From positions 1 to 52,199 of the forward strand of contig JACPMG010000003.1 of assembly GCA_016186095.1 (NCBI GenBank): DNA of 52,199 nt, written 5' to 3'. The translations under genes and the position numbers were made by a program. The stretch comes from Candidatus Sungiibacteriota bacterium. GTDB lineage: Bacteria; Patescibacteriota; Minisyncoccia; Sungbacterales; HO2-52-23. Below are positions 10,724-47,208 of the stretch, in pieces; within the stretch, counting starts at the first letter, position 1, and each line of letters starts with the position of its first letter. The notes beneath the pieces are model-generated. The model did not search any database, had not been told where the DNA came from, and was given only the letters and a program-made list of their open reading frames with translations.

Positions 10724-10966
10724 ATGTTCAGCAAATTTGTAGAGCAAAAATTTAGATCCGCTCGGTATAAGATTTTGAAAGACGGAAGTTACTTTGGCGA
10801 AATCCCGGGATTTAAGGGGGTTTGGGCCAATGCCAAAAGTTTAGAGGATTGTCGCCAGGAGCTGCGCGAGGTTTTGGAGGAATGGTTGCTCTTGAAAGTA
10901 AAACATAGCGAATCGGTGCCAGGATTTAGATTTAGATTTGATCGGCGCGAGCTCGTGAAGAAATAA
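10724..10966 (+). CDS. hicB: HicB-family antitoxin (N-terminal HicB fold)
   Basis: 80 aa. The block YFGEIPGFKGVWANAKSLEDCRQELREVLEEWL is typical of HicB/UPF0150. A hicA-like gene follows 2 nt later. Confidence 0.65.
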   Translation: MFSKFVEQKFRSARYKILKDGSYFGEIPGFKGVWANAKSLEDCRQELREVLEEWLLLKVKHSESVPGFRFRFDRRELVKK

Positions 10967-10968
10967 CT

Positions 10969-11183
10969 ATGCCGCAGGAGATCTCTTGGAGGAAGTTGGT
11001 TCAGAAATTCCGCAACTTAGGATTTGATGGCCCCTATTCCGGCGGCCGTCATTTGTTTATGGTTAAGGGCGATTAAAGGTACATATTCCAAATCCGCACG
11101 ATGGAGATATCTCGCGGCAGCTTCTTTCAGAAATCCTTCGTCAAGCAGACATTTCTTCGAAAGAATGGAGGATGCATAAATAA
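10969..11183 (+). pseudogene. hicA: HicA-family toxin gene with a frameshift
   Basis: Frame A gives MPQEISWRKLVQKFRNLGFDGPYSGGRHLFMVKGD, then TAA at 11074-11076. The HicA C-terminus LKVHIPNPHDGDISRQLLSEILRQADISSKEWRMHK continues in the -1 frame from 11073 to TAA at 11181-11183. Confidence 0.65.
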
Positions 11184-11240
11184 TTTATTGCGGGGTAGTG
11201 AAGTAGTATCACGCTTGCCGGCGTCTGTCCTACACAAAAC

Positions 11241-11311: not shown

Positions 11312-11348
11312 TTTTGTGCGGGATAGCAACTAATTTAGGTCCGTTTTG

Positions 11349-11373
11349 TCCTTCCGAAGCCAAAGGCGAAGGA
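11349..11373. repeat. GC-rich hairpin of the GCC-AAA-GGC family
   Basis: TCCTTC..GCC-AAA-GGC..GAAGGA. The inner hairpin matches the TCAGCC-AAA-GGCTGA hairpin in the tRNA-like pseudogene. Confidence 0.5.
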
Positions 11374-13510: not shown

Positions 13511-13729
13511 ATGGACACGCTTACTATTCCTAAAAAATTAGCTCAAAAGGACGATTTGGTAGTGATTCCCCGTAAAGAATACGAGGGACTTTTGGAATTG
13601 AGACGGATGAAAGAATTTATACCGACCCGTGCTCAAAAAAGGGCGATGTTGCGGGCAGAAAGAAATTTCAGCCGCAAAAAAACACTCTCTTATAATGAAC
13701 TCGTCAAAAAGTTGGGATTTACAGGTTGA
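13511..13729 (+). CDS. Putative antitoxin of a RelE/ParE-type toxin-antitoxin pair
   Basis: 72 aa (MDTLTIPKKLAQKDDLVVIPRKEYEGLLEL...). Overlaps the downstream toxin gene by 35 nt. Confidence 0.55.
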   Translation: MDTLTIPKKLAQKDDLVVIPRKEYEGLLELRRMKEFIPTRAQKRAMLRAERNFSRKKTLSYNELVKKLGFTG

Positions 13730-13964
13730 TCCCGATGTTTTCAAGATCTTGCAGAAGATGCCTCGGCATGATGCCGAGGTTATTTTGGAAGTAATCCGGC
13801 TCTTGCCTATCAATCCGCACTTCGGTGATATTCAAAAGATGAAGGGCGAAGATAATACTTGGCGTCGCCGCCTTGGTTCGTATCGGATTTTTTTCAGAAT
13901 CAAAATTGCTGAAAAAGTTGTTCTTGTTTTTCATCTGGAGCGCAGGACCTCCAAAACGTATTAA
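13695..13964 (+). CDS. RelE/ParE-family toxin
   Basis: 89 aa. The C-terminal WRRRLGSYRIFFRIKIAEKVVLVFHLERR matches the RelE/ParE core pattern (W.RRVGDYRIIY...V..I.HR). Confidence 0.65.
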   Translation: MNSSKSWDLQVDPDVFKILQKMPRHDAEVILEVIRLLPINPHFGDIQKMKGEDNTWRRRLGSYRIFFRIKIAEKVVLVFHLERRTSKTY

Positions 13965-14048
13965 ATTGGCCATACCGAGACCCCCGTTTTTATTAAACCT
14001 GCCTGCCGGCAGGTCTCAATAGAGGAAGAGAAATAACTCTTTAATATT

Positions 14049-41742: not shown

Positions 41743-41792
41743 ATGGAATGCGCACTTGAGTTATTTACAAAGTAGATTATCATTATCCAGTT

Positions 41793-41879
41793 GGAAGGGT
41801 GCAGGAGCGGTTTAACTGGCGGTCCTGGAAAGACCGTGTACCAGAAATGGTACCGCGAGTTCGAATCTCGCCCCTTCCG
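41793..41879 (+). tRNA. tRNA-Ser (anticodon GGA)
   Basis: Hand fold: acceptor GGAAGGG/CCCTTCC, anticodon loop CTGGAAA, an 18-nt variable arm, T-loop TTCGAAT. Confidence 0.9.
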
Positions 41880-41889
41880 GTAGATTGAG

Positions 41890-46466: not shown

Positions 46467-46494
46467 GCTGAAAGCAAACTGCTTTGCTTTCAGC
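46467..46494 (+). terminator. Perfect 12-bp hairpin after rpoD
   Basis: GCTGAAAGCAAA-CTGC-TTTGCTTTCAGC. No T-tract. Confidence 0.5.
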
Positions 46495-46524: not shown

Positions 46525-46665
46525 TCCGGCGTAGCTCAGTGGTAGACCTGCCTGCCGGTAGGCAGGGCGGCTCGCTGTTCCAATCGGAGGATGATCCGCC
46601 TCTGGCGGAAACGAGAAGGTCCCAGGTTCTCAGCCAAAGGCTGATTCGCCTCCGGCGAAGAATCC
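46525..46665 (+). pseudogene. tRNA-Asn-like gene carrying three hairpin insertions and lacking its 3' end
   Basis: After removing 46547-46566, 46580-46609 and 46630-46659, the remaining 55 nt differ at one position from the body of the intact tRNA-Asn at 46700-46771. Confidence 0.6.
46624..46665. repeat. 42-bp direct repeat, left copy
   Basis: AGGTTCTCAGCCAAAGGCTGATTCGCCTCCGGCGAAGAATCC, identical to 47040-47081. Confidence 0.9.
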
Positions 46666-46699
46666 ATAACAATTTTAATTTCATTGTAAAACCATTTTC

Positions 46700-46771
46700 T
46701 CCCCAGTAGCTCAGCGGTAGAGCGGCTCGCTGTTAACGAGAAGGTCCCAGGTTCGAATCCTGGCTGGGGAG
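46700..46771 (+). tRNA. tRNA-Asn (anticodon GUU)
   Basis: Hand fold: acceptor TCCCCAG/CTGGGGA, anticodon loop CTGTTAA, T-loop TTCGAAT. Flanked by a perfect 14-bp leader/trailer inverted repeat. Confidence 0.9.
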
Positions 46772-46798
46772 AAAATGGTTTTACTATTTTTTATACAG

Positions 46799-47041
46799 AT
46801 GTTTTTCATATATGTGTTGCAAAGTATTTCATATGGAACGCGTTATGCCGGTAGTACTGATAATATAGAAAAAAGATTGAGCGAACATAATAAGGGCCGT
46901 TGCCGATATACCAGCGGACGCAAGCCATGGGAGATTGTATATCGGGAAAAATTTGAGTCAAGGGGTGAAGCAATGAAGCGCGAAAAATTTCTAAAATCGG
47001 GACAAGGAAGAAAATGGCTAGACGATAATTTATCCGGTTAG
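46799..47041 (+). CDS. GIY-YIG nuclease family protein (UPF0213-like)
   Basis: MFFIYVLQS..YGTRYAGSTDNIEKRLSEHNKG...KPWEIVYREKFESRGEAMKREKFLKS. About 80 aa from ATG 46799. Confidence 0.8.
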   Translation: MFFIYVLQSISYGTRYAGSTDNIEKRLSEHNKGRCRYTSGRKPWEIVYREKFESRGEAMKREKFLKSGQGRKWLDDNLSG

Positions 47042-47081
47042 GTTCTCAGCCAAAGGCTGATTCGCCTCCGGCGAAGAATCC
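47040..47081. repeat. 42-bp direct repeat, right copy
   Basis: Identical to 46624-46665. Overlaps the GIY-YIG stop codon. Followed by a tRNA-3'-end-like TGCCCGGGGAGG. Confidence 0.9.
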
Positions 47082-47208
47082 TGCCCGGGGAGGTTTGAAT
47101 CGAAACAAAAGTCGTCCAGGGACGAGTGGCTCGCGGGCCAAAGCGAAAGTGCGGCGACCATAATCTTTTTTTCTTGAACCGCCGGAGAATCGGTGGTTTA
47201 ATGTAATC

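Follow-up and report, generated by a model that had tools for sequence, protein, structure and literature searches.

A GIY-YIG nuclease gene and a tRNA-Asn gene bracketed by palindromic inserts form a putative mobile cassette downstream of rpoD in a Candidatus Sungiibacteriota genome

Contig JACPMG010000003.1 of a Candidatus Sungiibacteriota bacterium (assembly GCA_016186095.1) carries, within the 52,199-nucleotide (nt) stretch analyzed here and called the window below, a tRNA-Asn(GUU) copy that is interrupted by three small hairpin-forming blocks and lies next to an intact twin. Both copies turned out to belong to a larger arrangement, in which the intact tRNA-Asn and a gene for an 80-amino-acid (aa) GIY-YIG nuclease are enclosed by a perfect direct repeat and flanked by partial tRNA-Asn genes on either side. 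Judging from sequence comparisons with related loci, we consider it probable that a selfish nuclease-plus-tRNA cassette invades tRNA genes, with the hairpin modules as cassette ends or satellite elements. A cassette of this kind would account for the broken and the intact copy adjoining each other.

The interrupted tRNA-Asn copy and its surroundings

The locus was examined at 46525-46771 of the 52-kb stretch on the + strand, and its anatomy was extended to 47092. It reads, in order, 5′ remnant with inserts, intact tRNA, nuclease, and 3′ remnant with insert. The features are listed below, with insertion points marked by a caret; the last line gives a related sequence from another part of the window.

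46525-46665, + strand: apparent 5′ remnant of an older tRNA-Asn(GUU) allele, covering tRNA positions 1-62, with acceptor strand TCCGGCG, truncated in the 3′ T-stem and carrying three inserts
46547-46566, + strand: block 1, a copy with one mismatch (arms 90% complementary) of the 20-nt palindrome CCTGCCTGCC|GGCAGGCAGG, in the D-arm after GGTAGA
46580-46609, + strand: block 2, a double-hairpin module of 30 nt that separates nt 36 from nt 37, first unit decayed (CCAATCGGAGGATGA), second unit perfect (TCCGCC-TCT-GGCGGA)
46624-46665, + strand: left copy of the 42-nt direct repeat, AGGTTC + module + GAATCC
46630-46659, + strand: block 3, a 30-nt double-hairpin module (TCAGCC-AAA-GGCTGA + TTCGCC-TCC-GGCGAA) in the T-loop at TTC^GAA (56/57), the putative left boundary module of the cassette
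46683-46699, + strand: leader arm of a 17-bp stalk, a continuation of the intact tRNA's acceptor stem
46700-46771, + strand: intact tRNA-Asn(GUU), the presumably functional copy inside the cassette (Rfam 68.7 bits; ARAGORN 46699-46772)
46771-46787, + strand: trailer arm of the stalk, ending 11 nt before the nuclease start codon
46799-47041, + strand: gene for the 80-aa GIY-YIG nuclease of UPF0213/Slx1 type (Pfam PF01541, E 4.6e-15)
47040-47081, + strand: right copy of the 42-nt direct repeat, its module copy (47046-47075) beginning 4 nt past the nuclease stop codon
47076-47092, + strand: apparent 3′ remnant of another older tRNA-Asn allele, with the 3′ half of the T-loop, T-stem CCTGC, acceptor CCGGGGA and discriminator G
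13998-14013, + strand: truncated copy (CCTGCCTGCCGGCAGG) of the 20-nt palindrome CCTGCCTGCCGGCAGGCAGG, in the intergenic spacer after a ParE-like toxin open reading frame (ORF; 13629-13964)

Cutting the three blocks out of 46531-46665 leaves 55 nt, 54 of which are identical to the intact tRNA-Asn(GUU), the sole mismatch being a T/C difference in the D loop. This match agrees with the initial annotation, which had arrived at it from the letters alone; the perfect short hairpins it had pointed out (CCTGCC/GGCAGG, TCCGCC-TCT-GGCGGA, TCAGCC-AAA-GGCTGA and TTCGCC-TCC-GGCGAA) and its insert positions in the D-arm, at nt 36/37 and in the T-loop at 56/57 were likewise all found as described. The hairpins are also present in the predicted single-stranded DNA fold, and the tandem core GCC-N3-GGC-N6-GCC-N3-GGC occurs twice in the window compared to 0.01 expected occurrences. 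The fold energy of the whole remnant is mildly unusual (z −2.5 as DNA, −1.3 as RNA); with such mild values it is not overall stability that makes the argument, it is the individual hairpins and their covariation. Comparison of the filled with the empty sites in the window (CTGTT^AACGAG and GGTTC^GAATCC) shows clean insertion without target-site duplication.

The interrupted copy ends at tRNA position 62, where GAATCC runs into ATAACA. The intact twin is called by both ARAGORN and Rfam; the interrupted copy is called by neither, even at E≤5 in the case of Rfam, and the remnant with its hairpins falls into no Rfam family, either at the gathering threshold or at E≤5. Because the copy has no 3′ T-stem and no acceptor strand, and because only four of seven positions pair between its 5′ acceptor (TCCGGCG) and the closest 3′ remnant (CCGGGGA), its sequence supports a non-functional remnant rather than an expressed tRNA with introns. 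The initial annotation had kept open, as its minor option, an expressed tRNA with three unconventional intervening sequences. The placement of the inserts in or beside loops and the mostly intact tRNA stems of the remnant would suit such a tRNA. However, the sole candidate for its 3′ end lies 416 nt away and belongs to another allele, many related remnants run directly into a nuclease start codon, and no bulge-helix-bulge or group I signature is present. At this locus the option is effectively refuted, and we give it next to no chance.

Block 3 recurs without any change at 47046-47075, where GGTTC and GAATCC flank it once more and a tRNA 3′ end (TGCCCGGGGAG) comes next. Together with the adjoining T-arm sequence, the two copies make up a perfect 42-nt direct repeat, 416 bp from start to start, and between its copies lie the intact tRNA-Asn and the nuclease gene. 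The side-by-side pair of the initial annotation holds for both copies, and it is to be completed by what was absent there: the gene for the nuclease, the other copy of the module, the 3′ remnant and the cassette as a whole.

The stalk around the intact tRNA is part of a 24-nt inverted repeat with 96% complementarity (46683-46706 with 46764-46787) that is perfect over 17 bp and includes the discriminator base in its pairing. It could be a processing signal or an element boundary. The tRNA-Gln of the window has a 7-bp version (11233-11239 with 11312-11318), and among related loci perfect stalks of at least 7 bp surround 17 of 66 cassette tRNAs and 3 of 45 other tRNAs, with sequences that differ between genomes.

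Upstream of the locus lie dnaG and rpoD, downstream a gene for a BNR-repeat protein. Between the rpoD stop codon and the tRNA remnant there is a perfect 12-bp hairpin (GCTGAAAGCAAA-ctgc-TTTGCTTTCAGC, 46467-46494), which is not a standard intrinsic terminator because it has no T tract; a promoter and terminator scan at the locus gave nothing above shuffle expectation. Partial tRNA duplications in the form of direct repeats are a hallmark of integrases that target tRNA genes, and one related locus (L170) even carries arrays of 3′ remnants, which raises the question of whether the remnants are scars of a prophage or genomic island. Yet the bracketed 416-bp unit contains no integrase and is flanked by rpoD and the BNR-repeat gene, and the duplicated segment has the T-loop insert, not the tRNA 3′ end, at its center. 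In addition, the module is rare in viral contigs (five matches in 2.9 million), a rarity that also speaks against a phage origin of the modules. We regard integrase scars as very improbable.

Three acceptor types meet at the locus, namely TCCGGCG in the 5′ remnant, TCCCCAG/CTGGGGA in the inner gene and CCTGC-CCGGGGA (T-stem and acceptor) in the 3′ remnant. The closest relatives, with RpoD 86-88% identical to the 397-aa form of the window, are found among Candidatus Sungbacteria-like Patescibacteria. In one of them (L206), a tRNA-Asn that begins with TCCGGCGTAGCTCAACGG directly follows rpoD and has the acceptor TCCGGCG of the window's 5′ remnant. In another (L205, RpoD 86%), rpoD is followed by a 35-nt spacer and an insert-free tRNA-Asn ending in CCTGCCCGGGGAG, with no 5′ remnant upstream, and the last 13 nt of the window's 3′ remnant equal the 3′ end of this gene. 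By this sequence evidence the two window remnants appear to derive from different alleles, both seen in close relatives, and the locus would thus have been remodeled at least twice. The site is occupied in L002 and L003, in the dnaG-rpoD context they have in common with the window, and L001 lies in another genomic context. The L205 and L206 contigs break off within 18-60 nt of that junction between rpoD and tRNA-Asn, as would happen if repeats of tRNA pieces disrupt metagenome assemblies.

Nuclease genes and hairpin modules at related loci

The 80-aa product (P0001 on record) has homologues of about 80 aa in metagenome bins of Patescibacteria, the candidate phyla radiation (CPR). It belongs to the GIY-YIG superfamily: among 33 homologues, Y5, Y16, G18, R26, H30, N31 and E62 are invariant or nearly so and correspond to the GIY-YIG catalytic set, and the AlphaFold (AF2) model (pLDDT, predicted local distance difference test, 94.6) shows strands and helices in the order expected for this fold. 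Profile searches against the PDB matched the UPF0213 proteins BH0048 and EF2693 (E 1e-11 and 2e-10; TMq of the predicted fold 0.58 and 0.56) and Slx1 structure-specific endonucleases (E about 4e-5; TMq 0.61-0.72, at best about 2 Angstrom root-mean-square deviation), and to a lesser degree I-TevI (E 0.09; TMq 0.49-0.51). The matched Slx1 entries are titled structure-specific endonuclease, and their titles indicate processing of branched DNA and 5′ flaps. PHROGs and PADLOC contained no match to the nuclease, and NCBIfam gave a weak, sub-threshold match only, to ‘group I intron endonuclease’. Unlike I-TevI and the Seg enzymes, the protein consists of the catalytic domain only and has no DNA-binding domain. 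Sequence and model thus mark it as a bare domain of Slx1/UPF0213 type, not a classical homing endonuclease. Slx1 itself acts together with Slx4 and has a zinc-finger domain. To our knowledge, UPF0213 proteins have no established function, and we know of no Slx1 or UPF0213 protein linked to tRNA-gene remnants or hairpin modules.

We collected 83 loci that encode this GIY-YIG family, nearly all of them from Patescibacteria and a few from Omnitrophota, Ignavibacteriales and Margulisiibacteriota bins. About 70 of the 83 have a same-strand tRNA (Gln, Asn, Tyr, Ser, Lys or Met) within about 50 nt of the ORF. The tRNA lies directly downstream in the case of Gln (more than 35 loci), and also of Tyr, Ser, Lys, Met and Asn; directly upstream it is Asn, the type of the window. 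The nested layout was read in L001, L002, L004, L008 and L016 and follows a general plan: first the same tRNA as a 5′ copy that reaches as far as the T-loop, with two hairpins inserted at TTC^GAA and often with more inserts in the D and anticodon loops, then nuclease ORF and intact tRNA in either order, and often a 3′ remnant with the same T-loop insert. In many loci, remnants with modules are present on either side. The outer halves in L001 and L002 pair with each other to give perfect 7-bp acceptor stems of their own, unlike the inner tRNA (TCCTCGG/CCGAGGA and TCCGCGG/CCGCGGA), suggesting that the inner gene is a different allele and that it was inserted, together with the nuclease, into a resident gene that had once been functional. 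The window, L001, L002, L004 and L170 contain remnants of different alleles that are arranged in series or nested. As a separate observation, some tRNA-Asn genes bear a long anticodon-loop insert after CTGT (L002, 2590-2770; downstream of the GIY-YIG ORF in L063, L065, L077 and L079). The L002 type (e.g., GTAGAGACTAGA...GCTATGG) is presumably similar to small group I tRNA introns in their core; at E≤0.01 it was not reported by Rfam.

Perfect GCC-N3-GGC hairpins accumulate at these loci, with 269 occurrences in the 397 kb of the 83 loci compared to 2-11 in dinucleotide shuffles (about 6 expected, about 40-fold), and at least one is present in 80 of the 83. Their placement is narrow: 147 of 262 hairpins lie within 200 nt upstream of the ORF and hardly any is farther from it than 500 nt. 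In 60 of 76 loci, 8-57 nt separate the end of the closest hairpin from the start codon, no matter which tRNA loop (T, anticodon or D) is involved, and a second tight spacing class of 126-159 nt represents the Asn type with the tRNA in between. Alignment of each remnant with its intact neighbor mapped 127 inserts. Of these, 53 occupy precisely the T-loop site 56/57, 27 the anticodon loop (where they follow nt 35 in Gln and nt 36 in Asn and Lys) and 26 the D-arm; the most frequent insert length is 30 nt (55/127). Modules at position 36/37, as in block 2, are also found in L001 (Asn; 30 nt by reading, 29 by the aligner) and in L004 and L029 (Lys, 30 nt), and the decayed first unit of block 2 matches L001 (TCAGCCCGAGGCTGA) at 10 of 15 positions.

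The module consists of two successive hairpins of 15 nt each, the first with a loop rich in purines (N-R-A) and the second with the mirror of that loop (T-Y-N), i.e., a unit and its inverted copy, so that it reads alike on both strands. The near invariance of loop position A15 and its mirror T28 reflects this design, and 16-nt unit variants carry mirror-image bulges. Across 31 distinct T-loop modules, 98.7% of positions are paired and 43 changes are double-sided, which is reached by none of 500 shuffles; the three outer pairs of each stem covary and the inner GCC/GGC is invariant. The strand symmetry of the module points to an action at the DNA level.

The 20-nt palindrome of block 1 also belongs to a family, with perfect copies in four unrelated CPR contigs (L007, L024, L030 and L052) and related CCTGCCCGCC inserts at the same GGTAGA^ D-arm site in L015, L023 and L024. 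Its core 10-mer occurs 29 times in 403 kb compared to about 1.5 expected. Of the two related words noted in the initial annotation, ACCTGCCTGCCGG at 13997, a 13-mer with 0.002 expected occurrences, is a truncated form of this recurrent palindrome. In contrast, GCC-AAA-GGC at 11359 (about 0.4 expected) is at chance level, and the hairpin around it is not a module.

Exact-pattern scanning of public metagenome contigs for the module yielded at least 133 matches in at least 120 stretches, and the following values refer to the matches listed. About 25 of the 133 are in T-loop contexts, some of them at Arg, Pro, Val and Thr genes without a nuclease. Many others sit in unrelated hairpin loops, including REP-like (repetitive extragenic palindromic) GTAG...CTAC elements of GC-rich contigs. 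The junctions follow the consensus YY^RA(A/T), and a host stem of at least 5 bp surrounds the module in 22% of cases versus 4% in controls. A palindromic target cut at its center (TTC^GAA, GTT^AAC, CTT^AAG) was tried as a common rule and rejected, the −n/+n complementarity being barely above a composition control. Individual loci illustrate the range of contexts. Among the matches listed in L084-L203, REP-like doublets with GTAG...CTAC heads hold the module in their loop (e.g., L146, 3370-3453: cGTAGCTGCAGACCTTCAGGTCTGCa...GCAGGGCT[module]AAAGCCCTGCAGCTACg), in GC-rich and probably non-CPR contigs that show no GIY-YIG gene of this family nearby. L192 (3080-3700), which is nuclease-free, has an intact tRNA-Arg with T-loop-module remnants on both sides. 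In the nuclease-free L170 (80-400), 3′ remnants are arrayed behind a tRNA-Pro; every remnant carries a module, and one of the modules holds a nested palindrome.

The initial annotation had taken the blocks for discrete insertions and proposed to look for them elsewhere. Measured against the intact twin they are discrete, both families are recurrent and GC-rich, and they reappear in related loci and metagenome contigs, the module also in unrelated hairpin loops and with the junction pattern YY^RA. Its preferred picture, a decaying tRNA colonized by miniature palindromic elements, stands as far as a non-functional remnant and inserted elements are concerned, but not in the form given: within the 52-kb window, the sole part of the genome scanned, modules occur at this one locus only, they show neither target-site duplications nor terminal inverted repeats of the kind known from miniature inverted-repeat transposable elements (MITEs), and they cluster by the nuclease at fixed tRNA positions. 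With their preference for loops, their clean insertion and their lack of dispersal in the window, the modules are not ordinary MITEs.

Two further explanations bear on these data. According to the first, the 30-nt modules and the 20-nt palindrome are independent parasites of hairpin loops, autonomous or mobilized in trans. They would survive only where they do no harm, in redundant tRNA remnants left by duplication or old integrations, and the GIY-YIG gene would be a coincidental neighbor, a passenger at tRNA genes. The metagenome matches listed speak for this, in that most modules among them have no GIY-YIG gene of this family nearby, many reside in REP-like hairpin loops and host stems are enriched, and so do the module-carrying remnants at the tRNA-Arg and tRNA-Pro loci without a nuclease. 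Nevertheless, the spacing between module and start codon is tight across loop types, identical modules bracket ORF plus tRNA, and hairpins are present at nearly all GIY-YIG loci at the enrichment given above. Two independent elements would not hold such a spacing, and we therefore judge this explanation unlikely.

The second explanation, a stable functional arrangement, is in our view less likely still. Remnant and hairpins would act in cis, as RNA or as DNA, for instance as a leader that serves the processing or regulation of nuclease mRNA and tRNA, and the remnant would be kept by selection and homogenized against the functional tRNA. Such a role would agree with remnants that, where aligned, hardly ever differ from the tRNA beside them, with covarying hairpin stems and fixed ORF spacing, and with the leader/trailer stalk around many cassette tRNAs. 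It is difficult to reconcile with modules that also occur downstream of the ORF and in contexts with neither tRNA nor nuclease, with serial or nested remnants of different alleles, with the decayed unit of block 2 and with a region downstream of rpoD that varies among close relatives. The inverted-unit symmetry, moreover, suggests a role at the DNA level, and no Rfam family was matched.

A few features elsewhere in the window were followed up. The tRNA-Gln (11240) and tRNA-Ser (41792) genes were considered as nested in remnants as well and were rejected, their alignment scores of 14-22 lying inside the shuffled range (mean 16, maximum 28). The latter gene, tRNA-Ser(GGA) at 41792-41880, is called by ARAGORN and was not reported by the Rfam tRNA model at the gathering threshold. 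An 80-aa ORF at 10724, tried as a second nuclease, is not a GIY-YIG protein; with the short ORF that follows it just upstream of tRNA-Gln (10724-11100) it looks, by sequence, like a toxin-antitoxin-type pair.

Homing model and its implications

Under the cassette reading, a tRNA-Asn gene would have been invaded more than once by a small selfish cassette (46624-47081). The resident gene would have been split, its front half (46525-46665) and back end (47076-47092) being left as dead remnants, and the D-arm and nt-36 blocks would be further palindromic inserts of like kinds, which may have been kept since the remnant is under no tRNA selection. The model starts from the observation that modules enter the loops of hairpin-forming DNA at YY^RA in a clean manner, with no duplication of the target. 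Where the DNA is single-stranded or extruded, a tRNA arm and the two module hairpins could form a three-way junction. Slx1-type GIY-YIG nucleases would be expected to cut such branched substrates, and we propose that the cassette nuclease cuts at or near these sites and that the break is repaired by copying the occupied allele, with tRNA remnants as homology arms (homing). CPR genomes are of small size, and most of their tRNA genes are believed to be single-copy; the cassette's own tRNA would make the disruption of such an essential gene survivable. Solo modules might represent independent insertions or the residue after loss of the DNA between two modules.

Homology-dependent spread would yield cassette lineages that track the tRNA type. 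In 41 of 61 cases the nearest GIY-YIG neighbor has the same tRNA type (0.40 by chance), and in the clustering of the nucleases the type with upstream Asn forms one cluster, while Lys-, Ser- and Asn-linked members are interspersed among Gln-linked ones. This pattern fits lineages that spread by homology with occasional switches.

Several points weigh against the cassette reading. The connection between nuclease and module is one of association and of the protein's relatives, and the mechanism is inferred from sequence. An 80-aa protein without a DNA-binding domain is unlike characterized homing endonucleases. The intact cassette tRNA keeps an unprotected TTCGAAT T-loop, so that a simple model in which the nuclease cuts naive T-loops predicts self-cleavage. 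A GIY-YIG gene of this family lies 15-48 nt downstream in about 15 of the 120 metagenome stretches among the matches listed, and the nuclease-free loci indicate that modules can last, and may even spread, where no nuclease is linked to them. In most loci the remnant has the same sequence as the intact tRNA next to it (e.g., 60/60 and 76/76), which fits recent homing within populations; local duplication, gene conversion and functional constraint fit equally. Finally, the L205 contig stops 18 nt after its tRNA, which limits its use as an unoccupied site, and L204, L207 and L208 have no tRNA-Asn at the position downstream of rpoD, indicating that this region is fluid.

A more far-reaching interpretation, which we put forward tentatively, with a chance that is substantial but well below even, is that the module and the 80-aa Slx1/UPF0213-type GIY-YIG protein constitute an unrecognized class of minimal mobile elements acting on hairpin loops. 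Here, a structure-specific nuclease, rather than an HUH, DDE or tyrosine/serine enzyme, would recognize the junction of a host hairpin and two element hairpins. Insertion would be clean and directed into hairpin loops, chiefly those of tRNA genes, with solo modules as non-autonomous satellites, and the tRNA-carrying cassettes would be the form that survives in essential single-copy tRNA genes of reduced genomes.

If the cassette reading is correct, tRNA genes of CPR bacteria are routinely invaded and replaced by tiny nuclease cassettes, which would explain broken tRNA copies and may explain why the assemblies of the closest relatives end at the locus. The uncharacterized 80-100-aa GIY-YIG UPF0213 family would be tied to a concrete DNA substrate and, if the new-class interpretation applies, would obtain its first biological role. 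The cassette reading would also bring to light an insert of 30 nt that enters loops specifically and cleanly, for which no enzyme is known and which occurs well beyond the CPR, in REP-like hairpins. For annotation, the module consensus and its fixed tRNA positions could serve to flag pseudo-tRNAs and cassette boundaries.

Comparison with known systems

In open-access literature, the coverage of which is incomplete and offers no proof of novelty, we found nothing on tRNA-linked GIY-YIG genes or on such modules in CPR bacteria, and nothing relevant on UPF0213 function or on tRNA group I introns in CPR. The arrangement is known in kind, as a free-standing endonuclease cassette that replaces the invaded gene; here it is combined with palindromic insertion elements, a combination for which we found no published description.

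The interrupted copy differs from tRNA genes with bulge-helix-bulge or group I introns, as it ends at position 62 without a pairing 3′ acceptor and its exons are incomplete. Slx1 and UPF0213 proteins (YazA/BH0048/EF2693) are the best sequence and fold matches of the window protein. In REP/REPIN-RAYT and IS200/IS605 systems, inverted hairpin doublets flank a single nuclease-type gene, insertion proceeds without target duplication at a short motif, and the substrate is probably a single-stranded hairpin. With REP/REPIN-RAYT the locus has in common inverted-doublet hairpins beside a nuclease-type gene and the absence of target-site duplication. In contrast to these elements, the linked gene is GIY-YIG rather than HUH/Y1, the module has no GTAG head and is undispersed in the window, and the target is a hairpin loop, mainly in tRNA genes.

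Enzymes of the Seg and I-TevI type are several-fold longer than the window protein and carry a DNA-binding domain, whereas the nuclease described here has 80 aa and is far closer to UPF0213 and Slx1. SegB of phage T4, a free-standing GIY-YIG homing enzyme encoded within a cluster of tRNA genes, favors the inheritance of its own region once the rival DNA has been cleaved (PMC2330249). In both cases a GIY-YIG gene lies amid tRNA genes; neither hairpin modules nor remnants of tRNA genes are described for SegB.

In form, the module most closely resembles the double-hairpin elements (DHEs) of chytrid and fission yeast mitochondria and the repetitive hairpin elements of sponge mitochondria, which are short, GC-rich and composed of two adjacent hairpins (PMC10085805, PMC2800124). 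DHEs lie in intergenic stretches as well as within rRNA genes, show conservation from species to species and are considered mobile, though by what mechanism is not known (PMC10085805, PMC2800124). The likeness lies in two 6-bp hairpins, covarying outer pairs and occurrence in many lineages, and is one of form without a claim of common descent. The module has an invariant GCC-N3-GGC core and a unit-plus-inverted-unit design, and the organellar elements, unlike it, are not reported to occupy fixed tRNA-loop positions or to be linked to an Slx1-type nuclease.

The arrangement as a whole finds its nearest functional parallels in SegB and in the mobile ORFs (mORFs) of fungal mitochondria; the latter form gene hybrids in Allomyces atp6 and in Glomus atp6, atp9, cox2 and nad3 (PMC3630166). 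There, a free-standing endonuclease gene, of the GIY-YIG type in one case, brings along a replacement for part of the host gene, and the native part is displaced (PMC3630166). An endonuclease ORF with a duplicated host gene copy and a displaced native remnant is equally seen in the window, in L001, L002, L004, L008 and L016 and in many other loci. Inserted and native parts of mORF hybrids can be different alleles, as they are in the window, L001 and L002; in most other loci studied here they are identical. If our reading holds, the cassettes would represent a bacterial counterpart of the mitochondrial mobile-ORF and double-hairpin-element puzzles, distinguished from mORFs by a bacterial tRNA as the host gene, by replacement of the whole tRNA, by a bare 80-aa UPF0213/Slx1 domain and by double-hairpin modules in tRNA loops.

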